64,000 nucleotides of DNA from Candidatus Woesearchaeota archaeon (GTDB lineage: Archaea > Nanobdellota > Nanobdellia > Woesearchaeales > SKIA01). Shown here piece after piece: positions 12,796 to 28,353 of the stretch. The notes below the pieces were generated by a model, which ran no database searches, was not told where the DNA came from, and worked only from the letters and a program-made list of their open reading frames with translations. The position numbers and the translations under genes were made by a program. Where the stretch lies: contig JBJKRI010000005.1 of the NCBI GenBank assembly GCA_046704725.1, positions 96,001-160,000 of the forward strand, read 5' to 3'. Numbering within the stretch: the stretch's first letter is position 1; the number at the start of each line of letters is the position of its first letter.

Positions 12796-15396
12796 CTACT
12801 CGTCGAAGGGCCTGCACAAACGGCAGGGGGAGTACCCGCCCTTCAAGGCCTCTTCGCGGCTCTTGTAGACGACGCGCTTCTCCTTGGAGATGCGCTGGGC
12901 GATCGGGCACTCGGCGCGGTGGATGCGCTTGCCGCCCTCGGAGGTCACGAAGACCTCTTTCTTGGGCGCGGCCTGGTTGATCACCTTGTCGCCAGCGATG
13001 ACATCACCGTGGACGGTCGGGCCCTTCACCTGCTCGGGCGTCTGCTCGACGCGCACGACAGGGGCTTGCGAGCCAGCGACGAGCTCGCGGACGGGCTTGC
13101 CGTAGCGCTCCTCGAGCTTCTTGTGCGGCAGCATCACCGCATAGATTGCGCAGAGCACGAAGAGCAGCGCGAGCAGCGCGAAGAAGATAGGACCGCAGAA
13201 CAGCGAGACGTAGTCGCCGAAGGAGTGCGGCACCAATCGCAGGACGCGCACCGTCATGACCGGGCTGTCCGTCGAGGCGCCCTTATTGTCCGTCGCGGTG
13301 AACACCACATGCTCCTCGCCGAAGAAGCCGCTCTGTGGCTTGAGGTAGGCTGTGGTGTTCTCGATGCGCACGGCCATGTGCTGCGGCTGGGACGAGGTGA
13401 ACGTGAGATTGTCGAGGTCAGGGTCGTAGAAGTACTTGGCCAGGTTGATGGTCAGGACGTTGCCCTGCGGGACCTCGTAGTAGAGGGCGGACGCGTTCGT
13501 GCCGTGCGGCGTCTCGGCGAGCTGCTGGGGCACGGTGACCTGGCTCGCGAGTATCGCCGCGACGATCAACGACAATACCATGAGCGCGAGCAGCACGGTC
13601 ACGATGGCGGGCTTGCTCGCTTCCTTGAAGGATATCTTTGGGAGCACCCCCGTGTAGGTGAGCAGCAAGACGATGAGCGCGAGCACGACGAGGACCACAC
13701 CGATGGCGACCAGCAGCAAGCACCAGTCGAGGCTGCCGGCGGCGCCGAAGGCGATGCTCTCGTACGCGCTGGTCAGCCAGCTCTTCTGCGAGACCTGGAA
13801 GCTCATGTCGTAGCGGTACTGGGAGCGCGGCGAGGTCAGGACGAGCGAACCGACGGTCGTGCCCTGGTTCTGCGAGAGGTTCGTCGGAATGAGGTGGAGC
13901 ACGGCCTGCTCGCCCGGAGCGAGGAAGACGCTCGTCGTGTTCAGCCTGAACAGCGGGCTGTTCCACTGCACCGCGTAGGTCGCGGCATCGATGCCCGTGT
14001 TCGTGATGAGGATGGGGACGACCTTGGCGTCCGTGTAGACCTTGTACTTGGTGTTCTCGGGAGCGACCATGGTGCAGTCCGCGTTGCTCACGGCGTGCAC
14101 AGGGATGTGCGTGGTCGTGGAGATGCCAGAGGACTGCGTGGCCGTCGCGGTCACGTCATAGGTCTGCGTGCGATCAGGGATCACCATTTGGAGGGTGACG
14201 TCCTTATGCTCGCCCGGACGCAGCCAGAACCGGCTCTGCACCGGGTGCGAGTAGATGTCGCCGCTGCTGGTGACAGTGAAGTTCTGCGCGTACATGCCGC
14301 GGTTCTGCACCTGCACGGTCACGTTCGTGGGGCCGGCGCACGCGGTCTGCTGCGCGGGCAGGGACTGGACGACCTGTTCGTAGCAGTCCTGCACCTGCAG
14401 GGGAGCGTCGAGCGTGTGTGTGGTACCGCCGAGCAAGGCCTTGGCAGTGATGCGAAGGTCCTGCGTGCCGAGGTCCGACTTGTGCGGCCGGAGCGTGACG
14501 GGGATGTCCACGGACTGTCCGGGAGCGAGCGAGACGTTCGTGACGCCGAGCGTCGCCCAGTACGGACCGTCTACATTGAGCGTGTAGGTGTTCGCCGTCT
14601 GCGCGGTGTTCGCGAGGTGCACGGTCATGGGCGTCGTGACCTCGGCGCAGACCGCCTGCTGGTTCGTCGTGAGCGCGAACTCGTAGTCCCACTGGATGTG
14701 CACGTCAGAGACGTGCGACTGCGAGACGCCCGTCTTGTCGGCGTGCGCGACGAATACCACTTGCTTGTTCCCGTACTCGCTGCAGCTGAAGCGCGCGACG
14801 GCATCGACGGTCTCGTTCTCGCCCGGAGCGAGCGCGAAGGACCGCCGGCTGAAGAGGACCTGCGCGGACGTGTCGGCCGAGAGGTTGTAGGTCTCGGTGT
14901 ACGTCGCGGTGTTCTGCACGGTCACCTCGTAACGGATCGGGCGGCAGGGAAGGACGTTGTCGTCGAGCTGCTGCACGGAGAGCCCGATGGGCTGGCAGGC
15001 CTCGACGGTGATGTCCCTGTTCGCCGCTCGATAGCGGCCGAACTGGCTGGTCGCGTAGATATTGTAATGGCTGGTGCCTGTGGTGCCGCACGGCGGCTGG
15101 AGCGTAACGGCGACCTGGGTCGCCTCTCCGGGCTGGAGGTCCACATGATTGCGGCTCACCCAGATCCAGGGCTGGCTCGCGTCGAGCGAGACCTGGTAGG
15201 AGGCGGGGAAATCCCCGAGATTATTGATGGTGAAGTAGTCCGTCGTCTGCCCGCAGGCGCAGACCTTGGTCTGCTGCGGCGCGGCGTTGAACTGCGCCTC
15301 GTGGCTGTAGGTCGTGACGCTGATGGCAGCGCTCGCTATCGGCGCGAGCAGCGCGAGGGCGAGCACGAGACTAATAATGCGTGATGAGTTCTTCAT
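12796..15396 (-). CDS. Large cell-surface protein: signal peptide, tandem Ig-like (COG1470/NEW3-like) repeats, 3 TM, cadherin-like domain, C-terminal Ada-type metal-binding domain
   Basis: Repeated N.G....Y...L.PGE...V motifs; YFYDPDLDNLTF..ATDNKG; IHRAECP...ALKGGYSPCRLCRP. Confidence 0.85.
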   Translation of the reverse strand: MKNSSRIISLVLALALLAPIASAAISVTTYSHEAQFNAAPQQTKVCACGQTTDYFTINNLGDFPASYQVSLDASQPWIWVSRNHVDLQPGEATQVAVTLQPPCGTTGTSHYNIYATSQFGRYRAANRDITVEACQPIGLSVQQLDDNVLPCRPIRYEVTVQNTATYTETYNLSADTSAQVLFSRRSFALAPGENETVDAVARFSCSEYGNKQVVFVAHADKTGVSQSHVSDVHIQWDYEFALTTNQQAVCAEVTTPMTVHLANTAQTANTYTLNVDGPYWATLGVTNVSLAPGQSVDIPVTLRPHKSDLGTQDLRITAKALLGGTTHTLDAPLQVQDCYEQVVQSLPAQQTACAGPTNVTVQVQNRGMYAQNFTVTSSGDIYSHPVQSRFWLRPGEHKDVTLQMVIPDRTQTYDVTATATQSSGISTTTHIPVHAVSNADCTMVAPENTKYKVYTDAKVVPILITNTGIDAATYAVQWNSPLFRLNTTSVFLAPGEQAVLHLIPTNLSQNQGTTVGSLVLTSPRSQYRYDMSFQVSQKSWLTSAYESIAFGAAGSLDWCLLLVAIGVVLVVLALIVLLLTYTGVLPKISFKEASKPAIVTVLLALMVLSLIVAAILASQVTVPQQLAETPHGTNASALYYEVPQGNVLTINLAKYFYDPDLDNLTFTSSQPQHMAVRIENTTAYLKPQSGFFGEEHVVFTATDNKGASTDSPVMTVRVLRLVPHSFGDYVSLFCGPIFFALLALLFVLCAIYAVMLPHKKLEERYGKPVRELVAGSQAPVVRVEQTPEQVKGPTVHGDVIAGDKVINQAAPKKEVFVTSEGGKRIHRAECPIAQRISKEKRVVYKSREEALKGGYSPCRLCRPFDE

Positions 15397-16201
15397 CTTC
15401 TTTCTCCTTTCTCCGGTTCCAGGCAATCGCCAGGATGATGAGCGCGATGAGCACGACCACGATGATGACAGAGACCAGCCACTGCGAGAATCCCTTGGCG
15501 GGCTCCGCGCTGAGCACGGCGAAAGCGCTGTCCAACCGCTCGTGGGTGTTGTCGTAATCGACGGTGAAGGTGACCTGATGCATGCCGAGCGGCGCGTCCT
15601 TGTCGATGCTGACGGACAGGTATGCCGTCCGCTCGCTGTTCGCGGGGATCGTGAGGTATTGTGTGGGCTCGACGGCGAAGGTGCTCCACGTGCGGGCGCC
15701 CTGCATGCCGAGCAGCACCTGCTTGGGCGTGCTATAGGTGTTGGTGATGGTGACGGGGAAGTAGACCGTGCTGCCCTGCGGGATGTTCCGCAAGGGGTCG
15801 AAGGTCACGTGGATGGTGTCCGTGGAATAGTTCTGCTGCGGCAGCGTCGGGAGCGGAGTGACCTCGACGCGATAGGCCTGCTGGATGCCCGGACCGTACT
15901 CGGGAACGACGCGCAGCTCCATGCGCTGCGGGCCCGTGTAATCGGACGGGATGGGATACGTCTTGTCGAAGCGATAGACCAGGCCGGCCTGCGCGACCTG
16001 ATGGTCGTTGATCGCGCCGGGCAAGGTGATGTCCGTGGCCACCTGCCCGAGGGATGTGTCTCCCATGAGGGTGTACGCGACCTCGAGGTTCGATCCCGGA
16101 GCGACGGGCTGCGGCGTGACAGAAAGCTGGGTGATGCGCGGGACGGCCAGTACGCTCGAGGCGCACAGGACGAGCACCGCTATCAGCATCACGCTTCTCA
16201 T
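15371..16201 (-). CDS. Secreted Ig-like protein with C-terminal membrane anchor
   Basis: Signal peptide, two beta-sandwich-like domains, C-terminal TM plus RRKEKEDEELITHY tail. Confidence 0.85.
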   Translation of the reverse strand: MRSVMLIAVLVLCASSVLAVPRITQLSVTPQPVAPGSNLEVAYTLMGDTSLGQVATDITLPGAINDHQVAQAGLVYRFDKTYPIPSDYTGPQRMELRVVPEYGPGIQQAYRVEVTPLPTLPQQNYSTDTIHVTFDPLRNIPQGSTVYFPVTITNTYSTPKQVLLGMQGARTWSTFAVEPTQYLTIPANSERTAYLSVSIDKDAPLGMHQVTFTVDYDNTHERLDSAFAVLSAEPAKGFSQWLVSVIIVVVLIALIILAIAWNRRKEKEDEELITHY

Positions 16202-16254: not shown

Positions 16255-19200
16255 TTAGTGATGACGGCGAGGGCGTTTCTTATGGACGCGTGGCTGCTTG
16301 TGCACACGCAACGCGGCGACGATCGCGATCGCGACGATCAGGGCGACGAGCACGATCCACAACACATCCCACGCAGTGAAACCGCCCCTGCTGGTGTGCG
16401 GCACGTTCGAGAGGGGCACAACATGGGCGACGAGATAGACATCCTTCTGCGAACCGTCGGTGGTGAGGGTGACGCGGAACGGGTACTGTCCCTCGGGCGT
16501 CGCCTTGGGAGCGAAGACGCGCAGGTCGGTGTGCAAGGTCTGGCCCGCCGGGACCACGACGACGTTGCCCGACTCGAAGACGTAATCGCCCCACGGCAAT
16601 ATGCCGTCGGCCGCGAGCATGTAGGTGCGCGATGTGGAACCGTCATTGCTGATGGTGAGCGGGAACACGCCGCCCTGGGAACTGCCGGCGAGCACATCCT
16701 GCATCTGGTAGAACGAGGCGTTGGTGCCGCCCGCTCCGGGAGCGCACGTCTTCGACGGGTCGACACGCAGGTTGGTGCCCTTCTGGGACTGGACGCCGGC
16801 GCCCTGCACGCCGCACAAGACGAGGTACGTCCCCGGTTGGCTGCACACGGGCAGGCGCAGGTTCAACGTGCGCGAGGTCATCTGTCCGGGCTGGAGGCTG
16901 AGGATGGTGTGGCCTTGCTCGACGCCGAGGCTCGGGATCGCCGCTGAGAGGCGGGCGTTCTGCAAGGCGTGGTCGAGGTTGTTTGTGACGATGACATCGA
17001 CGGGAGCGTACAGGCCGCCCGACAAGCCCTGCGTCTGCTGGAGCTGGCACTGGACCATGACATCGCACGCGTCGCCGCGCCCGTCATGGTTGCTGTCGAT
17101 CTGGGAGGGGTTGTACGCCAACGGGCAGTTGTCCTTGGAGTCGATGACGCCGTCGCAATCCGTATCGTCCTGGAAGACGCCGTTCACCTTGATGGCGCAG
17201 GTCTTGGACGGCGGGATGCCCGGACCGAGGACGGGCGGTGGGTAGAAGCCGTTGTCGTTGGTCAGGTCATGGTTGACGACGGTGAAGGTCGCGCTGTCCG
17301 TCGCCTGGGTGCAGCCGCGCACGCCGAAGGTGATGGCTTCGGAGATCTGGCCGACCGGTGACGAGGACGAGAAGATGTTCTTGTCGAAGCCAACGTGCAC
17401 GGTCGAGTCGTTCGCGATGGTGACAGAGAGGAACTTGCTGCCCGTCGCGGTGTAGCGCAGGCCCGTCGTGTCCACGCCCTGCACGTAATCGCCGAGCTTG
17501 AAGTCGTCGAAGTGTTCGTCCGACTGGATGATCTGGTCGGGGATGCCCGCGATGATGGGCGCGACAGAACTCGTGGGCAATGTGTTGTAGGTGACCGTCT
17601 GCGTCGAGGTGCGTCCCTTGTCATCGGTGAGGGTGATGGTGAGCGTCTCGGTGAACGGACCGCTCTGGAGAGGGTCGGTCACGTTGAGGACGTGCGTGTT
17701 CGGGTCCAGGTGGACCTGCAGACGCTGGTTGCCTGAGACGGAGAGATGATAGTTGTTCTTGATGGCGTCATCCACGATGTAGTTGTCCAGGTCGATGCTC
17801 GGGAACGAGCTGCCGCAGGTGAGCACCTGGTTGGGGATGGGCAGGATGTAGGGCGCCTTGTCCACCGAGGGGACCGTCGTCTGTCCCGTGCCTGTGAGGA
17901 TGATGCGCGCGCTCGCCGTGCGCCCGTTGGCGAGGTGGGCGGTGTTCCATATCGTGGACTGCACGCCAGGGTCGAGGTCGCTGCTGCTCACCTTCGCTTG
18001 GTAGCTGATCGTGGCTGTGGACTGCGCGGGGATATTGTAGAGCGTGAGCCCGTTGCCGTCGGCGACGCTGCCCGATGTGGCGACGTAGAAGGTGCCGGAG
18101 GGGCCTGTTCCCGTCACGTACTGGTTGCCCAGGAAGGTGACCGAACCGCCGTTGGTGCCCTGGATGACGCCGCCGTCCTCGCCGAGGGTGTCCGTCACGG
18201 TAGTGTTGCCTGCGGAATCACCGTTGTTGCGCACGGTGATCGTGTAGCCGACGACATTGCCGTTCGATGGCTGGTTATTGGTGACGGCCTTGGTGACCGA
18301 GAAGTCGGGACCTTGCCCAGGACCGGGGATGACCTGCCCGCTGGGCGAGACGGTGAGGGTGGCCGACGAGCTCTTCGTCACGCCGTCGGCGACAGCGGTG
18401 GCCGTGTTCGTGATGGTGTCTTGCGTCGGTGCTGAGCTGACGTCCGCCTGGTAGGTGATGGTTGCCGTGCCGTTCAGGTTCGTGATATGCAGTCCGTTGC
18501 CGATGCTGCCATAGGCGTAACCGTCATGGGAGAAGACGACGGAGGTGCCGCCGTAGACATAGGTGGCGGTGGCGCCCGCGCTGCCCGTCAACGTCTTGGA
18601 TTGCGTGAAGCTGTCGGTGAGGTCCACGGTGGATGCTGTCCCCGAGACGGTGATGGTGTAGGTGACGCGACCGTCCTTGACCGTGGTCGGAGCGACGGTC
18701 TTGGAGATCGTGACGCCCGTAGAGGGGGTCGTGCCGCCTGTCGTGAGGTATACGCTCGCGCTCGCGGATTTCGTGGTGCCGTCGGCGAGCGTGGCCTTGG
18801 CGATGTTCGCGAGGTACTGCGCTGTGGATCCGGCGGTGGCGACCGCCGAATAGGTGATCGTGGCGGTGCCGTCGAGGTTGCTGAAGACATAGCCGCCGCC
18901 GGCCTGGCGATAGTAGCTGCCGGACGGGTCGTTCACGATCGGCGTTCCGGTCAGCGTGAGGGCGGCGCCGTTGGTCCCTGAGATGCCGCCACTGAGCAAG
19001 CCGTCGGCGAGCGTGACCGAGCTCTCCTGACCGCTGAGCGTGATGGTGTAGGTCGCGGACTGGCCATCTGTGAGCGTGCCGGTGCTCGCGGCCTTGCTGA
19101 TGGAGAATGTGGACGCGCTTGCCGCGCAGGCGGACGGGTCCTGGCTGGGGTTGAATGTGCAGGGGCAATTGTCGATGTTGTCGGGGACCTTGTCGCGGTC

Positions 19201-19422
19201 GCTATCGGCGAGATAGCAACTGAGCGTGCTGGAGCCCGGGCTCGATCCGCTCGGCGTGTAGCACGTCCCGTCCGTCGGGGTGCACGCCGGAGTGATGCCG
19301 GGGCACGCGATGGGTGTCTGCCCCGCGCAGGCGGTCCAAGCGTGGGCCGCGGTCGTGTGCACCAAGAAGAGTGCCACGACGATAGCGAGGACGAGAAGAA
19401 TGCGCGTTCCGGCCGCTCTCAT
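16255..19422 (-). CDS. Large surface protein/adhesin with thrombospondin type-3 Ca-binding repeats, DUF11-like and Ig-like domains, C-terminal TM
   Basis: [15 protein letters not shown] and [35 protein letters not shown]; three ISK...YTIT...ITY.A...N.A repeats; Thr/Gly-rich. Confidence 0.88.
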   Translation of the reverse strand: [1055 protein letters not shown]

Positions 19423-19449: not shown

Positions 19450-21171
19450 TTAATGTTTGTGCCTGATCGGGATCTCGACGGTGATACCGGCGCGGAACTG
19501 CCTGTTCTGGCCGAGGGTGTGGAGCGCGGCGCCGCTGTAGGAGGGGATGTCCTGCTCGAACCTGTTCTGGACGAATTCCCCTGTGACGCCCACATTTACC
19601 GGTCCGAGCGTGCGCGTCAGGGATGCACGCGTGTCGAGCTCCTTGTATCGCATGTCTGCGTTCTCCGACTGCACGTCGGTGTATTGCGCGTCGGCGCCGA
19701 TCCGCCATTCATGGACGGGGATGCGCACGCCCATCGCGGTGCTTGAGCCCTTCATGTCCGTTCTGGAATAGTTATGGGGTGTCGTCCCGAGCTCGCGTCG
19801 GGCGAACTGCGACCAGTTGGTGACTCCCGACATCGCGTAGAATCGCCCCCCCGCGTTGTTGGACCACAAGAGCATGGGGCCGACGCCCACAGCATAGATC
19901 GATTGGTCCTCCCCGTTGGGGATCCTCGATGCGGTCCGCTGGCGCAGGAACAGACCATCGCCGCCGACGAGGAAACGGACGTTGCCCGCCCTGGCCACCG
20001 CGAGCCCCGCCACGCCGTGCGCGTCGTAGAGGTTATCCGCTGTTCCCTGGTTTCCGCTGCGTCGGTACAGGCCTTGTCCGTTAGCGAACAGCGGTCCCAC
20101 GTCCGCGTCGAGAGAGACGCCGGCACCCCATTCGGGGTCGTTGCCGACCGTCCTTGTGGGCTGCAATGAGCGATAATCGGTTGTCAGCGAGCTGTTGACG
20201 CCTCCGTAGCCGATCACACCCACATCGAGATGGACGGCAGAGGGTCCATGCGTCTTTTTGTGAGCGTGTCGTGGGGCTTCGTGCGCTTTCTGCTCGCGGG
20301 CTTTCTGTTGACCTTGCGTCTTGTGGTGCTCATGCGCTTGCGGCTGCTCGTGGGTCTTGCGCTCGTGTTGGGCCTTCTTGCGCTTTCGCGCTGGCTCGCC
20401 TCCGAGCGAGGCGATGGTTGGAGCGGTGATATCGACTTTCTCTTCGATATGCACGATGTACGGCGCCGGTCGCGGAACGCCCGGCTGCGGCTTTCCGGCT
20501 TGCGCCACGGCCTTCTTTTCTCCAGGGTGTTGCGCTTTCGCCAGATATTGCGTGACGATCCGTGGCGGATTCGCGTACTCGATCGCCGCGAATGCGGAGC
20601 TGCAGATGTCCCGCTTGGGCTGGCAATCGTCGGAGTCGTTCCACATGTAGGCCTTGAAGGTGCGGTTCTGGTTGTCGCCGAGCGCTTTGTTCGTGTGCAC
20701 GACCCATCCGTCCCGCTCCTTGCCGTCGACGACGACAGTGGTATCCTGCTGGACGATGTCCTTGTAGTCTGCCTTGAACCCGGGGACGAAGCGGATGTGG
20801 TCATCCTTCTTGCCGTGGACGAAGACGGTCGGCCGCGTCCCGTCGAGGACGACGAGCTGCGAGTCCTTCGCGACGGCGGCCTTGCCGAAGGTGTCCATGA
20901 TACGATTGCCGTCCGGCGTGGTCGCGAGGTGCTTCTGGTTCCAGGGGGATCCCTCGATGCTGAGATACCCGAGGACCTTGCCGTCCTGCATGACCAGCAT
21001 CGGGCTGGTCTTCGGATTGCTGTTATTGGGCTGGACGAGGGTGTAATTATCGAGCTCGGGCTGCTGTTGGGGCTTCTGGGCGTGTAGCGGAAGGGCTGTC
21101 GCGAGCATCGCTGCCCCGGCGAAGACGCCGAGACGCGCCGTCCGGGCCACGCGTTCCAGAAGACTGTCCAT
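19450..21171 (-). CDS. Secreted protein with Lys/His/Gln-rich linker and predicted C-terminal beta-barrel-like domain
   Basis: Signal peptide ending PLHA-Q; charged low-complexity linker; ~12 amphipathic strands in the last ~260 aa. Confidence 0.75.
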   Translation of the reverse strand: MDSLLERVARTARLGVFAGAAMLATALPLHAQKPQQQPELDNYTLVQPNNSNPKTSPMLVMQDGKVLGYLSIEGSPWNQKHLATTPDGNRIMDTFGKAAVAKDSQLVVLDGTRPTVFVHGKKDDHIRFVPGFKADYKDIVQQDTTVVVDGKERDGWVVHTNKALGDNQNRTFKAYMWNDSDDCQPKRDICSSAFAAIEYANPPRIVTQYLAKAQHPGEKKAVAQAGKPQPGVPRPAPYIVHIEEKVDITAPTIASLGGEPARKRKKAQHERKTHEQPQAHEHHKTQGQQKAREQKAHEAPRHAHKKTHGPSAVHLDVGVIGYGGVNSSLTTDYRSLQPTRTVGNDPEWGAGVSLDADVGPLFANGQGLYRRSGNQGTADNLYDAHGVAGLAVARAGNVRFLVGGDGLFLRQRTASRIPNGEDQSIYAVGVGPMLLWSNNAGGRFYAMSGVTNWSQFARRELGTTPHNYSRTDMKGSSTAMGVRIPVHEWRIGADAQYTDVQSENADMRYKELDTRASLTRTLGPVNVGVTGEFVQNRFEQDIPSYSGAALHTLGQNRQFRAGITVEIPIRHKH

Positions 21172-21282
21172 TGTCTCGGTGAACGCTGTCTTGGAATATA
21201 AATCTTACGTATTGTAACTACTAATAAGTTGTATCTTTATTCCCCAGAAACCTTATAAGCGCCCAGCCTGACCCCCAAGCGG

Positions 21283-24153
21283 ATGGCACGGGGGAAGCAC
21301 GAGAAGCACGCGCACAAGAAAGAAGCGCCAGAGTGGCAGCAGAAAGTCACGACGGTCGCCAAGAGCAAGTACGTGCTCATCGCCCTGCTGCTCGCCGTGA
21401 TGTTCTTCGCGGTCTACTTCCGCGCGTACCCGGCAAGCCTGCCCATCACCAAGACCTGGGCGCAAGGCACGCTGGAGAACCAGTACGTGCAGCAAGCGAC
21501 CACCCAGCTGCAGCAGCAATTCCCGCACCTGCCACCAGCGCAACTCCAGCAACGCGCGCAACAGCTCTACCAACAGCAAGTGGCACAGAATCCGCAACAG
21601 ATACAGCAACAGGTGGACACGCTCGCAGCGCAATTCAAGAGCAGGCTGCAGATGCCTGTGGTGACACCGTCAGGCAAGACGGTGCAACAGACCTACTTCC
21701 TCGCCATCGACCCGTACTACTGGCTGCGGCGCGTGCGCAACATCTACGCGCACGGCAACGTCTGCGACGCTACGATCAACGGGACATGCATGGACACGCA
21801 CATGCTCGCACCCAACGGCGTGCCCACGCAGAACGACTTCCACAGCTTCGTCGAAGCGGCCATCGGCAAGATCGGCTCGTTCTTCGGCTTCGCGCCCATC
21901 AGCGCGATGTTCTTCCTGCCGGCCATCTTCGCCGCGATAGCGGCGATACCGGCGTTCTTCATCATCGACAGGCGCTACGGCAGCTTCGCGGCCGCGGTCG
22001 GCGCATTGGTCATCGTCATCCATCCGGTCTTGTTAGGGAGAACCCCGGCCGGCTTCGTCGACACGGACATCTGGAACGCGCTATTCCCGCTCATGCTCGC
22101 ATGGCTGTTCCTCATCGGGCTCGACCGCAAGGACAAATGGGGATACGCCTACATGGCCGGAGCCGCAGTCTTCACCGGGCTCTACGCCAAGTTCTGGTCG
22201 GGCTGGTACTTCGCGTTCATCATCGTCTTGCTCACGCTCATCGGCTCGGCCGTCTACGCCGTGATACGCATGCTCATCGCGCAGAGGACCGAGCGCCTCT
22301 CGGCGGAGCACGCGAAAGCGGCGAAGGACTACGCGAAACGCAGCCTCATCCATCTCGGCGTGTTCATCGTGGTGACCGGCATCGTCGTGACGCTGCTCGC
22401 CGACTTCAAGACGTTCATCCAAGCGTTCTACGCACCGCTGCAGGCGTCCATAGGCATCCAGGCGCCCGTGAACCCAGACCTGTGGCCCAACGTATTGACG
22501 ACCGTCGCGGAGCTCAACACGGTGCCATTGGGGACCATCATCGGTGAGCTCGGCGGACGGCTCATCTTCATCCTCTCCGTGCTCGGGACGTTCACCTACG
22601 TGCTGCGCCTCAAGAGCCTCGGCTGGAAGCGCTGGGCCGCGGCGGTCGGCGTGATCGCGTACTACCTGCTGCTCACCACGACAACCGCGCTCAACATGAG
22701 CCTGTTCCTGTACTTCGTGCTCTTCATGCTCCCGCTCGTGCTCACCTACGCGTACAGCATCTTCAGCGAGGAGACCGTCACCATCCACTACGGGCTGCTC
22801 GTCATGGGTTGGTTCGCCGCGAGCATGTTCGCCACCACGCAAGGGACGCGTTTCCTGCTGCTCATCATCCCGTTCTTCGGCATCGCCATCGGCTTCGCCG
22901 TGGGCTGGCTGCTCAAGGTCCTGCCGCCCCTCGCGGAGAAGGAGATACAGATACCGCGCTTCTGGGGCGCGATCGTCACCATGGCGCTCGTGTTCGCCTT
23001 CATCTTCACGCCGGTGAGCGCGAACCTCATCGGCACGGCGCACAGCACCGGCATCAACGAGGTACCGAGCATGAACGACGCGTGGTGGACCGCCCTCAAG
23101 ACCATCGAGGCCGACTCGCAACCGAACGCCATAATCACGAGCTGGTGGGATTTCGGCCACTGGTTCAAGTACGTGGCGAACCGTTCGGTGACCTTCGACG
23201 GGGCGTCTCAGACAACGCACCAGGCACACTGGGTCGGTCTAATCCTGCAGACGAACAACGACACGAAAGCCGTGGGGATACTGCGCATGCTGGACTGCGG
23301 AGGCAACGACGCCTACGCGCGCGTGCTGGCGGTCGAGAAGGATCCGCTCAAGGCCTACAACGTGACTGACAGCCTCTTGGGGGTGAGCAAGCAGACCGCG
23401 GAGCAAAGACTGCTCGCGGACGGATTCACGCAGGCCCAGGCGCAAGGCGTGCTCGCCAAGACGCACTGCGACCCGCCCGAAGCATACCTCATCACCTCGT
23501 CGGACATGGTCGGCAAGGCAGCCGTGTGGGGCCACTTCGGTCTCTGGAACTTCGATAAGGCCTACGTCGCGAACGCCGCGGACAACGACAACCGTCAGAC
23601 GGCAATCGACAACATCTCGCACGAGCTCAACGTGAGCACAGCGGAAGCCACGCAGCTATACACGCAGGCCAAGACGCAGCCGACACGCGCGGCGCTCAAC
23701 GCCTGGGTATCGCCGTGGCCGTCGTTCGCCGGCGCCTCGACCTGCACGCCGCACAACGGCACGGAGAACTGCGGACTCGGACTGCAGGTCGGGACGCAAG
23801 CCGGGCAGAAGATCATCGCCAACCAGCTCATCGTCAATACCACGAGCCCGATGAACAGCAGTATCCTGCTCACCGCGAACGGGCAGTACGTCGGCGTGGT
23901 CAAGCCAGGTGTCTTGTACTACAACGGGACGCGGTACGACTTGGGTGGGCAATTGTCGCTCAGCGTGGACGTGGAGAACGATACAGTCATCATCGCGGAC
24001 GACTCGCTCGTGCACAGCATGTTCGCGCAGCTCTTCTACAGGCACGACAGCGGACCGTTCTTCCACGAAGTCACGACGCAGCGCCAGGTCACCGGAGGCT
24101 CCATCATCGTGTGGAAGGTCAACTGGGGCGCGTACATCAACGCGACCCGATAA
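21283..24153 (+). CDS. aglB: Oligosaccharyltransferase AglB (STT3)
   Basis: DPYYW, GFVDTD, TVAE, SWWDFGHW, DMVGK motif, multiple TM helices. Confidence 0.96.
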   Translation: MARGKHEKHAHKKEAPEWQQKVTTVAKSKYVLIALLLAVMFFAVYFRAYPASLPITKTWAQGTLENQYVQQATTQLQQQFPHLPPAQLQQRAQQLYQQQVAQNPQQIQQQVDTLAAQFKSRLQMPVVTPSGKTVQQTYFLAIDPYYWLRRVRNIYAHGNVCDATINGTCMDTHMLAPNGVPTQNDFHSFVEAAIGKIGSFFGFAPISAMFFLPAIFAAIAAIPAFFIIDRRYGSFAAAVGALVIVIHPVLLGRTPAGFVDTDIWNALFPLMLAWLFLIGLDRKDKWGYAYMAGAAVFTGLYAKFWSGWYFAFIIVLLTLIGSAVYAVIRMLIAQRTERLSAEHAKAAKDYAKRSLIHLGVFIVVTGIVVTLLADFKTFIQAFYAPLQASIGIQAPVNPDLWPNVLTTVAELNTVPLGTIIGELGGRLIFILSVLGTFTYVLRLKSLGWKRWAAAVGVIAYYLLLTTTTALNMSLFLYFVLFMLPLVLTYAYSIFSEETVTIHYGLLVMGWFAASMFATTQGTRFLLLIIPFFGIAIGFAVGWLLKVLPPLAEKEIQIPRFWGAIVTMALVFAFIFTPVSANLIGTAHSTGINEVPSMNDAWWTALKTIEADSQPNAIITSWWDFGHWFKYVANRSVTFDGASQTTHQAHWVGLILQTNNDTKAVGILRMLDCGGNDAYARVLAVEKDPLKAYNVTDSLLGVSKQTAEQRLLADGFTQAQAQGVLAKTHCDPPEAYLITSSDMVGKAAVWGHFGLWNFDKAYVANAADNDNRQTAIDNISHELNVSTAEATQLYTQAKTQPTRAALNAWVSPWPSFAGASTCTPHNGTENCGLGLQVGTQAGQKIIANQLIVNTTSPMNSSILLTANGQYVGVVKPGVLYYNGTRYDLGGQLSLSVDVENDTVIIADDSLVHSMFAQLFYRHDSGPFFHEVTTQRQVTGGSIIVWKVNWGAYINATR

Positions 24154-24183
24154 GCACTTAAGCGCGCATACCACGACAGACGC

Positions 24184-25290
24184 ATGCGACTATTGATATT
24201 CGCCGCGCACTTCCACCCGAAGATCGGTGGCGTGGAGAACTACGTGCTCGAACTCTCGAGACGGCTCGGAGGGATGGGCATTGATTGCATGATCGTCACC
24301 TTCAATACCATGGACGCTCCCGCGGAAGAACGCGTGGAGGGCGTGCGCGTCGTACGCTTGCCCTGCATATCCGTGCTCGGCGGCGAGCAGGCCATACCGC
24401 TGCCCGGCGCGTGGAAGGCCCTCCGGGCGTTGGGTCAGGAACGCTGGGACGCGGTGAACACGCACACACGGTTCTACCTCACGGCGTGGCTGGGAGCGCG
24501 CTTCGCGCAGAAGCACGGCCTGCCGCTCATCCACACGGAGCACGGGAACAGGCACGTCACGCACCCGAACCCCATCGTGACCGCATGCGCATGGCTCTAC
24601 GACATGACTCTCGGCCGCCTGCCGCTGCGGGCGGCGGACAAGGTGGTGTGCATCAGCAAGGCAGGCATACCGTTCGCCGAGCGTATGGGCGCCTCTAAGG
24701 AGGATATCGTCTACCTGCCGAACGCCATCGATATGAAGGCCGTCAAACGCACGGCATCATCCCTGCGTGCACGCTTGGGGATACCGAAGAAGCGGCGCAT
24801 CATCACGTACGTCGGACGGCTCATCCATGCGAAGGGGGTGCAGGACCTGTTCCAGGCCGTCGCTCCGCTGCGAGATATCGATGTGGTCATCGTCGGGGAC
24901 GGACCGTACCGCGCTGCGCTGGAGCGCTCTGCGCGCTCGTTCGGCGTGCGAGCGCACTTCCTCGGACAATTGCAGGTCAAGGGAGTATACTCGGCGCTTA
25001 GCGGGAGCGACCTGTTCGTCAATCCATCCTACTCCGAGGGACTGCCCACGAGCGTGCTCGAGGCGGCCGCGCTCGGCGTTCCCGCGATCGCCACGGACGT
25101 CGGGGGCACGCGCGAGATCCTGCCGGAGGACTGCCTGTTCGCGCCTCGGGATGTGGAGGCACTGCGTTCTCTCATCGGACGAGAGCCGGACGAGAAGCGG
25201 ACCGCGCAAGTGCAGAGACGCGTCCGCAGGACATTCGGCCTCGACACGGTCGCCCGGCGGTTCGCTGCACTGCTGAATACGCTGGTCTAG
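24184..25290 (+). CDS. Glycosyltransferase family 4
   Basis: P..GGVE, YVGRLIHAKG, EGLPTSVLEA. Confidence 0.93.
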   Translation: MRLLIFAAHFHPKIGGVENYVLELSRRLGGMGIDCMIVTFNTMDAPAEERVEGVRVVRLPCISVLGGEQAIPLPGAWKALRALGQERWDAVNTHTRFYLTAWLGARFAQKHGLPLIHTEHGNRHVTHPNPIVTACAWLYDMTLGRLPLRAADKVVCISKAGIPFAERMGASKEDIVYLPNAIDMKAVKRTASSLRARLGIPKKRRIITYVGRLIHAKGVQDLFQAVAPLRDIDVVIVGDGPYRAALERSARSFGVRAHFLGQLQVKGVYSALSGSDLFVNPSYSEGLPTSVLEAAALGVPAIATDVGGTREILPEDCLFAPRDVEALRSLIGREPDEKRTAQVQRRVRRTFGLDTVARRFAALLNTLV

Positions 25291-26153
25291 TCCTTTTCCG
25301 CTGCCAGGTCGATGACAGGATATAGACCGGTTCCCATGAGGATTCCGTACACGATCCTCCCGAGACCGACGGCCCGGAGCGCGCCAGCGACCCGCGAGAA
25401 GGCTGGGTGCGTCTTCGCCGCTTTCCCCGGACGTCCGGAGACGAGGAGGGAGCGGAGCGCCTCCGCGGAGAAGTCGCGCGTGATACGGAAGCCGTTGTCG
25501 GCGAGCAAGCGCCGGACCAGCCGCGGCGTGGTGTAGTTGATGCTGTCGATGAACGCGGGGTCGCGACCAGTGAGGCGGGCGATCACCTTGAACATCCAAC
25601 GTGGCATGTAGGGCAGCATGTACAGGTGATAATGCCCCTCATAGATCCAGAGGTAGTTCGGGCACATGAGGTAGAGCTTCCCCTTCTTGCGGAGCACGCG
25701 GGCGCTTTCCGCCATCGTCTTCTCGACATCCTGCACGTGCTCGAGGACCGTCTCGGAGGTGATGACATCCACTGATGCGTCATCCAGCGGAAGACGCTCT
25801 GCTCCGGCGAGGTAGAAACGGACGTTCTTCACACCGAAATACTCTTGCTTGAGCAAGCTCATCTCGTGTTCTTGCTTCTGGGGCTCCACGCCATGCACGA
25901 AGGAGGCGTGCTCGGCCATTGCCAAGGCCTTCTGCCCGGTGCCGCTGCCGAGGTCGAGCACGCGCTTGCCTTTCAGCCTGACCTTGCGCTCGATGGAACG
26001 GACGTGCGCGCGGCTCTCCTCGAGCTCCTGCTCGACGTTTATCGGTTCGCGGCCAGTGGACGCATAGCGGTCCTTGCGAAGTTTCGCCTGCAGCTCCTCG
26101 ATTCGTCGATCAACGCTCTTTCGTGACGAAGTCGACCGCGGCCGTGAACCCAT
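25287..26153 (-). CDS. Class I SAM-dependent methyltransferase
   Basis: VLDLGSGTG, AERLPLDDASVD, VLEHV, RVLRKKG; start uncertain (26153 or 26195). Confidence 0.88.
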   Translation of the reverse strand: MGSRPRSTSSRKSVDRRIEELQAKLRKDRYASTGREPINVEQELEESRAHVRSIERKVRLKGKRVLDLGSGTGQKALAMAEHASFVHGVEPQKQEHEMSLLKQEYFGVKNVRFYLAGAERLPLDDASVDVITSETVLEHVQDVEKTMAESARVLRKKGKLYLMCPNYLWIYEGHYHLYMLPYMPRWMFKVIARLTGRDPAFIDSINYTTPRLVRRLLADNGFRITRDFSAEALRSLLVSGRPGKAAKTHPAFSRVAGALRAVGLGRIVYGILMGTGLYPVIDLAAEKD

Positions 26154-27228
26154 TCGCCTGACGGAGGTATGAATGCTTCTTAAGGCTATGTTCACTTGTC
26201 ATTCGTACTATTTTTTTATCGAGTCCCAAGGCGTGCTTGATGGCTTCGGCCAAGGCTGTCGGGTCTTGTTGGGGGACCAGGAAACCGTTCTTGCCGTTGA
26301 CGATGAGGTCGAAGGCGGCGGCGACAGCGGTCGTGGAGACGACGGGGATGTGGCGCCCGAGCGCCTCGTTGATGGACAACCCCCACGCCTCGCTGCTCAC
26401 CACATCCTGCTTGCGGAAGACCGAGGGAAGCACATAGACGTCGCACGCGTCGTAATACGCACAGACGTTCTCGTGCGGGACCGCGCCGACCCACTCGACG
26501 TCCAGACCAAGCGTCTTGGCGAGCGCCTTGCACTCCTCCTCGAACGGTCCGGTGCCCGCGACGACGAGACGATACTTCTCTGGGTCGAGGTTCATCATCG
26601 CGTGGAGCAGCACGTCGAGCCCCTTGTAGCGCACGATGCGCGCGAGGTAGAGCACCATCCTTTTCCCCTTGGCCTTCTGGCGGATCGCCTGCATGTCTTT
26701 CCTCTCGGGGTCGGGCAAACGCTCGGCCGCGTTCGGCGCGATGAAGACCTTGTCAGGGGAGGCGCCCAGGGAGATGAAGAACTCGCGCGCCTTGGAGCCA
26801 GCGGCGATGCACGCGTCGCAGTTGCGCATGATGCGGCGCACATAGGGCAGGATGAATCGTGCCGCCCGCGTCTCGGGCCACTCCCAGTTCTCCCCCCACA
26901 CGATGAACGGGCGCTTGCGGATGCGCGTTGCCGCGTACAGGGCGTGCGTCGGGAACGAGCTCAGGTCGCTGGTGATGATGACGTCCGAGTCCCAGACCTT
27001 CCAGAGCACGCTCGGAGCGAGGTAGGAATAGCCGAGGTTTCGGATGGGCGTGAGGATCTCGTAGCGCCACTTCCTCGATTCCTCCTGCCACTCCTTGCGG
27101 AACTTCCCTGACTGCTTCTTGCCGACGTAGAAGAGGAAGCGGATGTCCAGCCTCTCGCTGAGGAGTGTGAACAGGCGGTTGCGGTACGCCCGCGGACCGC
27201 CATGCACGAACACGACGCGCGGCCTCAT
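26110..27228 (-). CDS. Glycosyltransferase family 4
   Basis: LYLARIVRYKG, EAWGLSINEA, NGFLV. Confidence 0.92.
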   Translation of the reverse strand: MRPRVVFVHGGPRAYRNRLFTLLSERLDIRFLFYVGKKQSGKFRKEWQEESRKWRYEILTPIRNLGYSYLAPSVLWKVWDSDVIITSDLSSFPTHALYAATRIRKRPFIVWGENWEWPETRAARFILPYVRRIMRNCDACIAAGSKAREFFISLGASPDKVFIAPNAAERLPDPERKDMQAIRQKAKGKRMVLYLARIVRYKGLDVLLHAMMNLDPEKYRLVVAGTGPFEEECKALAKTLGLDVEWVGAVPHENVCAYYDACDVYVLPSVFRKQDVVSSEAWGLSINEALGRHIPVVSTTAVAAAFDLIVNGKNGFLVPQQDPTALAEAIKHALGLDKKIVRMTSEHSLKKHSYLRQANGFTAAVDFVTKER

Positions 27229-28328
27229 CGACGCACCTTCTCGAACAAGGCGATGTACTGCTCCGCGATCGCGTCCCAATCGTAGTGCGCGACGGCGTGC
27301 TTTCGCATCGCTGCCCTCGCTTTCCTGGAAGATGTGCGCGTACACTTCTCGGCGATCGCTTGCGCGGTCTTCTCCGTGTCGGAGAAATCGAGCACCAATC
27401 CGGCAGGAGCCTCCTTCACCAGGTGGGAGAGGTTCGGGATGTCGTTGAGCACGCACGGGAGTCCCGCGCTCATCGCCTCGAGGATCGTGGTGGGTTGTCC
27501 CTCGTAGATGCTGCTCATGATATAGTAGTGCGCGGCCGCGTACAATCCCGGCAGCGTGTCGTGCGGGACCCTTCCGAGGAAGTGGATGAACGGAGCGCCT
27601 TTCGCGTCCTCCTTCGCCTGGGCGAGGAGGGAGCCATCGCCAGCGCACACGAGATGGATATCATCGCGCAGCTCGTGCGCGCGACGCACGACCTTGATGA
27701 GGGCGGGGATGTCTTTTTGGTATTCGAAGCGGCCGACGTAGAGCAGGACCGTGGTGTCCTTGGGCGTCGGCAGCGACGCGTGCTTGACGGTCGGCGAGAA
27801 CATCTTCGTGTCCACGCCGTTGGGGACGTAGAACGAACGGCGCTTGGGGATGCCCAGGCGCGTGAGCTCTTTTCGCACCTCCGGGCTGACCGTTGTGGAG
27901 AGGAAACGGTTCTTCCTGTAGCACTTGCGCTCGAGTAGGCGCATGAGCCAGTAGTACGCCTTGTGATACGCAGGGATTGGCGAATGCCTGTAGAGCGAGA
28001 AGTAGCGGTCGTAGGTGGTGTGCACGGTGGACACTGCGTTGGGGAGATCGATGCGTCGCAGGAACAACGGGTTGTGCAGCCAGACCGCATCGTACTCGGC
28101 CGCGTGCTCCTTGAGGTACGCTCTCACCGTCCCCCAGAAACGGAGCAGTCCGAGCCCCGCCCAGCGATTGATCGTCGCCTCGTCGCCGAGGCGGATGTCA
28201 GGCCCTGTGGGCGAGAGGACGACGCACTCCACGCCTTTCTTGCGCAACGCCTCCACGACGAAATGCGCGACCGTCGCGATGCCGGAGCCGTGCGGATAAT
28301 ACTCTTGTGCGCAGACGAGGACTCGCAT
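27225..28328 (-). CDS. Glycosyltransferase family 4
   Basis: PNGVD, YVGRFEYQKD, EGQPTTILEAMSAG. Confidence 0.93.
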   Translation of the reverse strand: MRVLVCAQEYYPHGSGIATVAHFVVEALRKKGVECVVLSPTGPDIRLGDEATINRWAGLGLLRFWGTVRAYLKEHAAEYDAVWLHNPLFLRRIDLPNAVSTVHTTYDRYFSLYRHSPIPAYHKAYYWLMRLLERKCYRKNRFLSTTVSPEVRKELTRLGIPKRRSFYVPNGVDTKMFSPTVKHASLPTPKDTTVLLYVGRFEYQKDIPALIKVVRRAHELRDDIHLVCAGDGSLLAQAKEDAKGAPFIHFLGRVPHDTLPGLYAAAHYYIMSSIYEGQPTTILEAMSAGLPCVLNDIPNLSHLVKEAPAGLVLDFSDTEKTAQAIAEKCTRTSSRKARAAMRKHAVAHYDWDAIAEQYIALFEKVRR

Positions 28329-28353
28329 GTGTCGGGCATGCGCGAAGCGCTTT

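Follow-up and report, generated by a model that had tools for sequence, protein, structure and literature searches.

Organisation of the locus

The window analysed here, which is a stretch of 64,000 nucleotides from the genome of a Candidatus Woesearchaeota archaeon, harbors a gene for a 573-aa protein (P0001) followed by three surface-protein genes and divergent from an oligosaccharyltransferase gene, as listed in Table 1. The translation of positions 19450-21171 on the plus strand is riddled with stops. The preliminary description of this DNA had given the residues, the segments and the C-terminus (…IRHKH) of the protein, all of which are found in the translation, and had placed it upstream of three surface-protein genes on the same strand, all three of which are indeed annotated as surface proteins. 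It had missed that the strand is the minus strand, that the gene stands at the head of a conserved surface-protein/AglB cluster, and that P0001 is one divergent example of a phenomenon found throughout the class.

Table 1. Features of the P0001 locus, in positions of the window.
Feature	Position	Strand	Basis
P0001 gene, 573 aa, first gene of the surface operon	19450..21171	minus	ATG-to-stop ORF
Sec-type signal peptide, residues 1-31, ending …ALPLHA before QK	21079..21171	minus	read from translation
N-terminal domain, residues 32-225	20497..21078	minus	composition; AF2 pLDDT about 30
Basic low-complexity linker, residues 226-312	20236..20496	minus	composition
C-terminal OMP-like beta domain, residues 313-573	19453..20235	minus	composition, strand pattern, ESM features
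1055-aa surface protein (DUF11, TSP_3, Ig-like); signal peptide, C-terminal TM helix and basic tail	16255..19422	minus	
276-aa surface protein, Ig-like (NPCBM_assoc/FixG_C); signal peptide, C-terminal TM anchor	15371..16201	minus	
876-aa multi-Ig-like surface protein; several TM helices, Zn-ribbon-like C-terminal end	12796..15426	minus	
AglB/STT3 oligosaccharyltransferase, divergent from P0001	21283..24153	plus	
AT-rich divergent intergenic region, common to P0001 and AglB	21172..21282		

The signal peptide of P0001 contains neither a lipobox cysteine nor a twin-arginine motif, and the hydrophobic N-terminus is the sole hydrophobic segment of the protein, in keeping with the signal peptide proposed at the outset. 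The N-terminal domain exhibits two cysteine residues (183 and 190) and four N-X-S/T sequons, and matched no Pfam family at E ≤ 10. The linker consists of K 13, A 13, P 11, H 11, Q 9 and E 9%, with 17 K+R, 10 H and 9 D+E among its 87 residues, which agrees with the Pro/Lys/His/Gln-rich linker first described, and it is not predicted to be helical in the AF2 model of P0001, at low confidence. The C-terminal domain (C-domain) is rich in glycine (13%) and aromatic residues and is devoid of cysteine. The Kyte-Doolittle maximum (1.4, at residue 11) falls within the signal segment, the only hydrophobic 19-mer of P0001, and the protein therefore has no helical anchor, as had been proposed; it is the only product of the operon in which such an anchor is missing.

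P0001 is the first gene of a conserved operon, the downstream genes of which have orthologs with 29–41% identity in relatives. The gene of the 1055-aa protein starts 27 nt past the P0001 stop, with a GGGGAG motif ahead of its start, and its product has orthologs in G001, G006 and G002 with identities of 41, 36 and 34%, respectively; no match to it was found in the fragmented genomes G003 and G004, and G005 gave domain-level matches only. The 276-aa and 876-aa proteins have orthologs in G001 with identities of 29 and 38%, respectively. A metagenome scan with the 1055-aa protein was swamped by its thrombospondin-type-3 motif, and a single one of the 80 loci kept (L025) spanned the protein, without upstream DNA. 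AglB is the first gene of a glycosylation island that spans about 16 kb, and the divergent arrangement of a P0001-type gene and AglB was also observed in G001, G002, G006 and G358. The region between the two genes contains TTTATATT at 21195-21202 (minus strand), 24 nt ahead of the P0001 ATG, which is a putative TATA-like box by the archaeal consensus and spacing. A scan for promoters and terminators was uninformative, with no sigma-70-like sites and five terminator-like ones where 4.6 were expected.

Native origin and positional counterparts of the first gene

The P0001 gene is real and native to the archaeal (Woesearchaeota) genome, and not contamination. Its contig comprises 273,578 bases, the genome has a completeness of 99.69% and a contamination of 0.6%, and the genes on either side are archaeal (AglB, YGR210 GTPase, an intron-bearing tRNA, Topo VI, RIO1, a Dim2-type KH protein and NFACT), in accordance with the organism having been described as an archaeon. 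Of 330 reference ORFs, 97.6% lie further from the mean codon usage of the genome than P0001, which has a GC3 of 0.80, and the records of the relatives are titled Candidatus Woesearchaeota. OMP-like genes are unexpected in archaea, and one of the matches described below may come from a stray bacterial contig: the 195-aa protein of G098 lies next to DUF885 on a contig of 4.9 kb. However, the length and archaeal gene content of the P0001 contig, the typical codon usage, an equivalent gene position in the operon of three relatives and beyond, and one counterpart sitting within a closed 774-kb genome leave a practically negligible probability for bacterial contamination, which the preliminary description had seen as a possible refutation, and likewise for a chimeric contig or a non-coding shadow ORF. 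Moreover, Omp85 (PF01103) was detected in none of the 401 genomes of the order, while seven diderm controls match, which argues against diderm contamination of the bins. PF01103 and PF07244 (POTRA) were likewise not found in the genome of P0001 itself, so that the BamA/TamA search suggested in the preliminary description came back empty both there and across the order.

The search for archaeal homologs, also suggested there, yielded only P0001 itself in the genomes of 41 relatives, and the same was observed for phmmer against 1.84 billion representatives and for 8000 scored candidates among proteins of near length. The scan of genome contigs gave no homolog, and no paralog was found in its own genome, where the next best match had E = 0.1. 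The C-domain matched no Pfam-A family at E ≤ 10 by hmmscan, and the whole protein none at E ≤ 0.01; NCBIfam returned nothing relevant for 14 family members including P0001, and no PDB sequence matched the P0001 C-domain or P0004, its counterpart in the same genus, at E ≤ 10. BLASTP of P0001 against the positional counterparts gave E values of 0.4–0.6 only, and all-against-all BLASTP and phmmer among the first-gene members gave nothing significant. A home-made HMM of ten out-of-family C-domains placed P0001 at E = 140, and hhalign of profiles A3 and A4 gave probabilities below 1% against P0001 and negative results against P0004 and against each other, while a MAFFT alignment of four C-domains showed 11–25% identity, a level that is not meaningful. 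P0004 retrieved only itself from a large protein database and nothing from 151 genomes of the order, which is uninformative because none of these was known to match; profile A2 retrieved its own genus and one marginal match over 401 genomes, and itself and one protein from the large database. Homology of the first gene is detectable within one genus only, and as P0001 is linked by sequence neither to barrel families nor to its counterparts, the position could hold an unrelated replacement gene.

The first gene of the envelope operon was defined as a gene on the same strand as, and before, a giant Ig-like/PKD/DUF11 protein, encoding a signal peptide, no TM segment and a C-terminal beta domain of ~250 aa, and P0001 falls within this definition for Woesearchaeal operons. 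In all three relatives with usable loci (G001, G002 and G006), the gene ahead of the surface proteins shares the architecture of P0001, which includes a signal peptide, a variable N-domain, a charged linker at the equivalent place and a Gly-rich beta domain of ~250-270 aa, with no TM helix. P0004, which ends in …GAGVRFSF, shows a weak match to PF13505 OMP_b-brl (E 0.002, 18.8 bits; 26 bits in six-frame translation), in both cases below the curated cut-off of 28.7 bits, and P0001 has no match to this model at E ≤ 10. PF13505 matches were observed in 11 of 401 Woesearchaeales genomes, two of them above cut-off, and in 20 of 401 genomes of the phylum, six of them above cut-off, and three of the 14 controls match, all of them diderm bacteria. 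Five archaeal proteins score at least 28.7 bits, and the Nanoarchaeia range above the cut-off is 28.8–38.2 bits. The matches lie mostly at the operon position equivalent to that of P0001: six of ten loci of the order with wide flanks have a giant PKD/Big_9/He_PIG protein directly downstream on the same strand, and at a seventh locus the match is the first gene of an Ig-like cluster that diverges from AglB. The flanks of the order loci are archaeal (TFIIB, exosome, NOG1, PTH2), and the first-gene arrangement is also present in sister orders (G545 and G436).

Strand pattern and structural likeness of the C-domain

The C-domain of P0001 can be divided into about 12 amphipathic segments, joined by long and short connections in turn, and the tight turns and long loops noticed at the outset are borne out by connection lengths of 25, 2, 10, 5, 15, 5, 25, 2, 11, 2 and 23 residues between the 12 proposed strands. 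The apolar face of these strands has a mean Kyte-Doolittle value of 1.85 and 4.4% charged residues, and the polar face is 27% charged. An automatic count found 10 amphipathic beta-segments against 4.6 ± 1.9 in shuffles, and at least 10 occurred in 12 of 2000 shuffles. This count does not stand out within the genome, where it ranks about 62nd among the 602 ORFs of 200 aa or more, since the Ig-like surface proteins score equally high, and alternating polarity is also shown by soluble beta-sandwiches. The last strand carries a polar-x-G-x-x-Hy-x-Hy motif, the underlying consensus of which has a low information content, followed by a basic tail of six residues, and basic tails after the last strand are also seen in several relatives. 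The terminal aromatic residue of the beta-signal of BAM-dependent OMPs is missing from P0001, as the preliminary description had recognised from its …IRHKH end, and a C-terminal Phe is present in P0004 and in the G216, G358, G012, G468 and G593 proteins.

The structure prediction envisaged for P0001 did not provide a fold, as AF2 on the single sequence returned an unusable model with a mean pLDDT of 32.2. For the counterpart from the closed 774-kb genome (G031), aligned with four relatives, AF2 produced a meander of long strands, with 10-11 antiparallel strands of 12-21 residues and pLDDT 65-88 over about residues 145-325, in a model with an overall mean pLDDT of 51 and its last ~80 residues unresolved. 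By VIA-align, 46 chains matched this model with Z of at least 8, including CymA (13.9), VhGalP (13.5), EspP and COG4313 (12.9), NanC (12.8), and Tsx and FapF (12.5); outer-membrane (OM) barrels make up 49 of the 50 best rows listed, and no soluble fold is found among the best 41. The superpositions on 12-14-strand porins (Z 12.4-13.9) cover 158-225 residues at 3.5-5.1 Å with 7-11% identity. Similarly, the Foldseek matches listed are all OM barrels, with low TM-scores (0.2-0.47) and one match at E ≤ 0.001. The ESM neighbours of the P0001 C-domain at 0.95, a value that shuffled proteins attain about 1 in 100 times, are DUF3943-named clusters, CymA, OmpG, Tsx, Phage_OMP and DUF6850, and those of the whole protein (0.92) are bacterial OM barrels; all named neighbours are OM barrels, with no Ig-like or sandwich families among them, and CymA, Tsx and OmpG turned up again when the G031 model was compared with known structures. 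P0001 has an ESM recognition value of 2241, below the 2300 that is reached by 91% of known families.

Part of these data would also suit a soluble or lattice-forming beta-rich C-domain (sandwich, jelly-roll or beta-helix) within an S-layer, for which the OMP-likeness would be compositional only, arising from glycine, aromatics and alternating polarity. Such a domain would accord with the lack of a sequence match of P0001 to any OMP family, with a density of amphipathic segments equal to that of Ig-like proteins in the same genome, with the below-par ESM recognition and the barren AF2 run, and with neighbours that are all Ig-like surface proteins; moreover, no pathway for beta-barrel insertion is known in archaea. 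On the other hand, the strict alternation of long and short connections, the strand face with only 4% charge, the named ESM neighbours, the OMP_b-brl matches of same-position counterparts, and the superposition of the G031 counterpart with its 12-21-residue strands on 12-14-strand porins at Z 12-14 make a soluble domain unlikely.

The preliminary description had called P0001 autotransporter-like, and its order of domains (signal peptide, N-domain, linker and a C-terminal beta domain of ~260 aa) does fit a genuine type Va autotransporter of bacterial origin, in which the N-domain would be the passenger displayed by a 12-strand translocator of the EspP/NalP type; in structure, the G031 counterpart also matches the barrels of EspP, NalP, BrkA, AIDA-I and Hbp. 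Membership of P0001 in this family is not supported, with no PF03797 match and no Pfam match of any kind at E ≤ 10. The autotransporter barrels are some among many equal matches of a relative, scoring no better than KdgM/NanC, Tsx, CymA and OmpG, and the ESM neighbours of P0001 are of the porin type. The N-domain is small (~190 aa) with no recognisable beta-helix, the linker is a long (~87-residue) basic stretch of low complexity, which would not suit a short pore-filling helix, the codon usage is native, and without Omp85 in any of the 401 genomes there is no BamA or TamA. The likeness to type Va autotransporters is thus one of layout only, and an autotransporter of this kind is very improbable.

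Among bacterial proteins, the monomeric 12-14-strand porins KdgM/NanC, Tsx, OmpG and CymA resemble the G031 counterpart and P0001 in domain size, but they lack an N-terminal domain and linker and are inserted by BAM into a lipopolysaccharide outer membrane. No sequence similarity to them is detectable, and their substrate specificity is not transferable. The bacterial OmpA/OmpX/opacity-kind barrels of PF13505 are resembled by the operon-position relatives and by stand-alone proteins of sister orders, which match the model and share the signal peptide, an alternating pattern rich in glycine and aromatics, and in the last strand the G at -6 and hydrophobics at -3 and -1. They differ in that the archaea encoding them have no Omp85 and many members carry an N-terminal domain, a linker and a basic tail, and the unmatched P0001 domain, with ~260 aa and about 12 segments, is longer than the 175-position model. 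An OMP-type barrel fold is well supported for the first-gene family. For P0001 itself (C-domain residues 313-573) the barrel fold is supported only indirectly, because no usable model of P0001 was obtained (pLDDT 32) and no profile connects it with its relatives; its C-domain is OMP-like by all the indirect measures available, which are its neighbours in the language model, the pattern of strands and loops, and the relatives at its operon position that match OMP_b-brl or fold as an OM-type barrel.

Possible membrane setting and significance of the proposed barrel

Beyond the fold of the P0001 C-domain, we infer its membrane embedding, the choice of membrane and the coupling to the neighbouring proteins. 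The explanation we favour, with a probability somewhat above even, is that the fast-evolving first gene of the operon encodes an exported, BAM-independent barrel of the OMP type, which sits in an outer lipid layer and is tied to the surface proteins. P0001 would thus be specific to its lineage and evolve very fast, at the head of a Woesearchaeal cell-envelope operon that is itself conserved. After export by Sec, its ~260-aa C-domain would form a transmembrane beta-barrel of about 12 strands without BAM. This barrel would span a lipid layer beyond the cytoplasmic membrane, with both termini and the short turns facing one way and the long loops, which bear the sequons N326, N452 and N467, facing the other. 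The N-domain and linker may remain on the side of insertion and couple the barrel to the helix-anchored, presumably co-transcribed and N-glycosylated Ig-like proteins, and the barrel would therefore be the foot by which a surface complex stands in the lipid, and may also be its channel. The preferred site would be a layer of the archaeon's own that resembles an outer membrane, with the membrane of a host cell nearly as likely.

The same fold could be directed at a host instead, inserting into the host membrane spontaneously or through the BAM of a Gram-negative host and serving as an anchor and a leak or feeding pore, with the N-domain and linker lying between the cells and bound to surface proteins of the symbiont. 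OMPs added from outside in vitro insert with their termini on the side of addition. The genome is small (1.18 Mb) and of DPANN type and has no BAM of its own, and some members retain the terminal-Phe beta-signal that bacterial BAM could read. P0001 is extremely divergent even within the genus, beside neighbours that are 29-41% identical, and this fits an interface under diversifying selection. However, the constant first-gene position in the main surface-protein/AglB cluster across orders looks like a housekeeping part of the envelope rather than an accessory effector, and a basic tail after the last strand, as in P0001 and several relatives, is expected to impair recognition by BAM. A host-directed barrel is rated as rather improbable.

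The reasoning behind the favoured barrel in an outer lipid layer follows that for the bacterial tether-porins (OmpM/SlpA and OmpA), with the autotransporters offering a likeness in domain order. In SlpA and OmpM, one abundant protein ties the outer layer to the layer underneath and serves as a channel. The pore protein of Ignicoccus hospitalis (Ihomp1/Imp1227), reportedly the subject of a 2007 study by Burghardt, is not known to be a barrel of the OMP type, in contrast to what is proposed for P0001. The layout of Deinococcus SlpA and Negativicutes OmpM, with an N-terminal binding domain, an extended or coiled stalk and a C-terminal barrel, is similar to that of P0001, whereas the P0001 barrel would be much smaller (about 12 strands against 16-30), and neither an SLH domain nor peptidoglycan is present. 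SlpA is reported as an OM tether-porin of a deep-branching diderm bacterium (PMC9388160). A second membrane is reported for some archaea, DPANN included, such as Ignicoccus, ARMAN and Altiarchaeum (PMC8871954), and a 'distal relative' of the PopA porin-like family is mentioned for Altiarchaeales (PMC12228718). No published outer membrane or OMP-like barrel was found for Woesearchaeota in a search of the openly accessible literature. No second OMP-like gene surfaced in the P0001 genome by paralog search, PF13505 or amphipathicity, and the crude amphipathicity screen of this genome (G000) returned only a shadow ORF and housekeeping proteins.

Transmembrane beta-barrels are generally regarded as characteristic of the outer membrane of bacteria and of the organellar membranes derived from it, and an Omp85 protein is believed to be required to assemble them. 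A conserved archaeal barrel family without Omp85 would raise the questions of unaided insertion and of possible diderm DPANN archaea, and further that of how genome-reduced episymbionts attach to their hosts and draw metabolites from them. P0001 provides a concrete candidate in this respect, with one domain of ~260 aa in one operon, and indicates that gene position can trace a family that has diverged past all profile methods. Our wider proposal, tentative and a little short of an even chance, is that the Nanoarchaeia (Woesearchaeales and sister DPANN orders) own a BAM-independent family of OMP-type barrels encoded by the first gene of their main surface-glycoprotein operon. If true, Archaea would gain their first beta-barrel membrane proteins, and these would represent either the means by which an unrecognised outer lipid layer is tethered by a barrel-linker-domain protein, or a self-inserting anchor in the host membrane that doubles as a feeding pore.

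Gene, native origin and surface operon of P0001

Translation of the minus strand yielded P0001 as a single ATG-to-TAA frame of 573 residues holding all the sequence quoted in the preliminary description, and the plus strand of 19450-21171 has many stops. A TATA-like TTTATATT box, judged by the archaeal promoter consensus, lies 24 nt 5' of the ATG, inside an AT-rich 111-bp spacer shared with the divergent AglB, and the downstream gene starts 27 nt past the P0001 stop, preceded by GGGGAG. The signal peptide reported earlier is present and is the sole hydrophobic 19-mer (maximum 1.4, residue 11; Kyte-Doolittle scan); there is no second one, in line with the earlier view that a helical anchor is lacking.

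The gene is archaeal and native to its genome, as opposed to contamination. The genome (1,183,702 bases, 8 contigs, 99.69% complete, 0.6% contaminated) carries it on a contig of 273,578 bases, of which the window is C5:96001-160000, and the window also encodes AglB/STT3, a YGR210-type GTPase, a 115-nt tRNA with a presumed intron, 5S rRNA, Topo VI A and B, RIO1, a Dim2-type KH protein, NFACT and a DnaG-type Toprim protein; the P0001 gene has a GC3 of 0.80 and a codon usage nearer the genome mean than 97.6% of 330 reference ORFs. An artefact is accordingly extremely improbable.

Three relatives (G001, G002 and G006) belong to the same family, with AglB just 37-41% identical, and show the same order of AglB, a divergent ORF (642, 473 or 625 aa) and a very large ORF. 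By sequence, the genes downstream of P0001 have true orthologs in the relatives: these match the 1055-aa protein (1084, 1763 and 396+ aa; 41, 36 and 34% identity), the 276-aa protein (302 aa; 29%) and the 876-aa protein (489+ aa; 38%). A signal peptide, a C-terminal TM helix and a basic tail are features of both the 1055- and the 276-aa protein. The 876-aa protein spans the membrane several times and may connect the surface complex with the cytoplasm. Each of the four first-gene proteins has a signal peptide, followed by an N-domain that varies between them, a linker of charged or coiled type and a beta domain (~250-270 aa, rich in Gly); none has a TM helix. In P0002, the G001 protein, the signal peptide follows a probably mis-called 5' extension; the signal-like segment appears only after ~70 residues, behind a Met inside the frame, and translation probably begins further downstream than called, which would give ~570 aa, near the length of P0001.

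Judging by the gene content of the island beside AglB, the surface proteins may carry an N-glycan with carbamoyl and/or sulfate groups. The genome also carries two giant ORFs; DPANN genomes typically encode surface proteins of such giant size.

Features of P0001, the window and related loci (window positions unless a contig or locus is named)
Feature	Location	Strand	Description
P0001 gene	21171→19450	-	first gene of the surface-protein operon
P0001 signal peptide	N-terminus		Sec-type, …ALPLHA|QK (translation, hydrophobicity scan)
P0001 N-domain	residues 32-225		mixed composition, two Cys
P0001 linker	residues 226-312		low-complexity: K 13, A 13, P 11, H 11, Q 9, E 9%
P0001 C-domain	residues 313-573		Gly-rich (13%), no Cys
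876-aa protein	12796-15426	-	Ig-like ectodomains, several TM helices; Cys-rich C-terminal end weakly resembling Ada Zn-binding domain (E 0.0076)
Glycosylation island (~16 kb)	21283-37358		after AglB: GT4/GT1 glycosyltransferases, two methyltransferases, Polysacc_synt flippase, carbamoyltransferase, asparagine-synthase-type amidotransferase, sulfotransferase, NAD epimerase
tRNA, 115 nt	11963-12077	-	presumably intron-bearing; Rfam yes, ARAGORN no
tRNA-Leu(CAG)	8731-8814	-	ARAGORN yes, Rfam gathering-threshold list no
Adjoining class-II (D/K/N type) aminoacyl-tRNA synthetase paralogs	59776-61062; 61771-63186	-; +	
tRNA-Asn	59683-59755		beside the synthetase pair
YbaK-type tRNA-editing domain protein	59163-59645		beside the synthetase pair
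Giant ORF, own 1.18-Mb genome (G000)	C8:15596-36532	+	~6,980 aa
Giant ORF, own genome (G000)	C6:76732-96327	-	~6,530 aa
P0002 gene (G001)	L006:11424-13352	+	642 aa as called
Tandem-module protein (G374:C9)	L122:7607-9892	+	761 aa; two ~240-aa OMP_b-brl-like modules, each behind a charged linker
AglB of G358	L118:9962-13135	+	C-terminal FKBP-type peptidyl-prolyl isomerase domain, residues 949-1053

Sequence isolation and strand pattern

P0001 retrieved nothing but itself from 5.8 billion clusters in a word-indexed search (near lengths), from 1.84 billion representatives in an exhaustive phmmer run, from 41 related genomes (four from the same genus) and from a species-genome scan, and its own genome holds no paralog. 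No match was obtained in NCBIfam or PDB sequences, nor in Pfam, even for the C-domain alone at E<=10; the autotransporter-like label of the preliminary description was not borne out, and although autotransporters share the domain order of P0001, a true autotransporter is very unlikely. Against its positional counterparts BLASTP gave only E 0.4-0.6, not alignable, and forced alignment of the four C-domains gave 11-25% identity; a home-made HMM (E=140) and hhalign with two alignment profiles (A3 and A4; probabilities <1%) linked P0001 to no other member. P0004, the same-genus counterpart, ends in …GAGVRFSF and matches Pfam OMP_b-brl below threshold (E 0.002, 18.8 bits, residues 368-472). Since no profile bridges them, we infer the homology of P0001 to OMP_b-brl-positive proteins from gene position and architecture; non-orthologous replacement at the first-gene position is a possible alternative.

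One face of the 12 proposed strands of the C-domain is apolar, with a mean Kyte-Doolittle value of 1.85 and 4.4% charged residues, and the other is polar (27% charged); the strand connections (25, 2, 10, 5, 15, 5, 25, 2, 11, 2 and 23 residues) strictly alternate long and short, as previously described, and 3/3 sequons fall in long connections. Automatic counting detected 10 amphipathic beta-segments versus 4.6 ± 1.9 in shuffles (at least 10 in 12/2000), ranking only about 62 of 602 ORFs in the genome because Ig-like surface proteins alternate equally. The pattern is therefore real, yet not diagnostic by itself for a membrane barrel. Taken as a whole, the earlier observation is confirmed and its interpretation partly supported. 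A soluble lattice domain is a less likely alternative for P0001 itself.

Predicted barrel folds and OMP_b-brl matches in the lineage

The single-sequence AF2 model of P0001 was unusable (mean pLDDT 32.2), and the only fold-level evidence on P0001 itself is the language-model feature search, in which the C-domain and whole-protein runs count as one source. Residues 305-573 scored 0.95 at best, with a below-par recognition value of 2241 and shuffled sequences attaining 0.95 about once in 100, and the named neighbours were DUF3943-labelled Bacteroidota clusters, CymA, DUF6850, Phage_OMP, OmpG and Tsx; the whole protein reached 0.92 (Phage_OMP, OmpG, CymA and a TonB-receptor-barrel cluster). The counterpart in G031 (407 aa; closed 774-kb genome), with relatives within its own genus only, is followed by a gene for a 1408-aa PKD protein. 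Its AF2 model from a 5-row alignment (mean pLDDT 51.4; 65-88 across about residues 145-325; last ~80 residues unresolved) displays 10-11 antiparallel strands in succession, each 12-21 residues long, with short turns between them. In a VIA-align comparison with 48,161 chains, Z was 13.9 for CymA, 13.5 for a KdgM-family porin, 12.9 for EspP and a COG4313 channel, 12.8 for NanC, 12.5 for Tsx and FapF, and 12.4 for KdgM and NalP; 46 chains had Z of at least 8, outer-membrane barrels made up 49/50 among the matches listed, and KdgM aligned over 158/171 residues at 3.5 Å. All listed Foldseek matches were likewise outer-membrane barrels, weakly (best E 8.8e-4, TM 0.2-0.47). CymA, OmpG and Tsx are common to the P0001 neighbours and these independent structural matches.

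Six-frame searches with PF13505 (OMP_b-brl, cut-off 28.7 bits) matched 11/401 Woesearchaeales genomes (2 over cut-off) and 20/401 phylum-wide genomes of high quality (6 over cut-off); of the 14 controls, just the E. coli, Caulobacter and Bacteroides genomes matched. Most matched ORFs carry a signal peptide, and many have classic OMP ends (…GIDYKF, …VIKFDF, …GLKYEF, …GFRFSF, …VGCKF), others showing, like P0001, a basic or polar tail beyond the last strand. With wide flanks, a giant PKD/Big_9/He_PIG/CARDB protein lies directly downstream on the same strand in 6/10 loci of the order; a seventh, in G358, heads an Ig-like cluster divergent from AglB and glycosyltransferases exactly as in the window. 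The flanks are archaeal (TFIIB, Rrp41/42, NOG1, ZPR1, PTH2, diphthamide synthase, SRP54). The other three are off-pattern: no giant neighbour occurs in G374, G196 lacks context that can be annotated, and the 4.9-kb contig with the G098 locus may be of bacterial origin. Protein scans of sister orders gave five proteins at 28.8-38.2 bits, one of them flanked by SRP54 and a RIO/Bud32-type kinase and two others followed, here too, by Big_9/He_PIG proteins. Two separate observations concern these loci: the modules of the 761-aa G374 protein score identically (25.5 bits each; whole protein 37.4), pointing to a very recent duplication within the gene or, alternatively, to an error of assembly, and the isomerase fusion of G358 AglB is unusual for an oligosaccharyltransferase.

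A candidate outer-layer barrel

We lean slightly towards P0001 as a Sec-exported OMP-type barrel in an outer lipid layer, coupled to Ig-like glycoproteins. After Sec export, the C-domain would sit, as a barrel with some 12 strands, in a lipid layer beyond the cytoplasmic membrane, with termini and short turns on the insertion side and long, possibly N-glycosylated loops opposite; the N-domain and basic linker would join it to the presumably co-transcribed, helix-anchored Ig-like glycoproteins, the same logic as in bacterial tether-porins (OmpA, OmpM/SlpA). The preferred membrane is the cell's own outer layer, because the gene constantly heads a housekeeping envelope cluster across orders; some DPANN are reported as diderm (PMC8871954). 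Insertion into a host membrane, unlikely overall but nearly as likely as the own layer, is favoured by the extreme divergence of P0001, a symbiont-type genome and the missing BAM: neither Omp85 nor POTRA was found in the window's own genome, and Omp85 occurred in 0/401 Woesearchaeales genomes versus all seven diderm controls. No report of OMP-like barrels in Woesearchaeota was found in the literature searched, the nearest published item being a distal PopA relative suggested in Altiarchaeales in a single sentence of PMC12228718. The OMP barrel is already known; what would be new is its archaeal, BAM-less, surface-operon setting.
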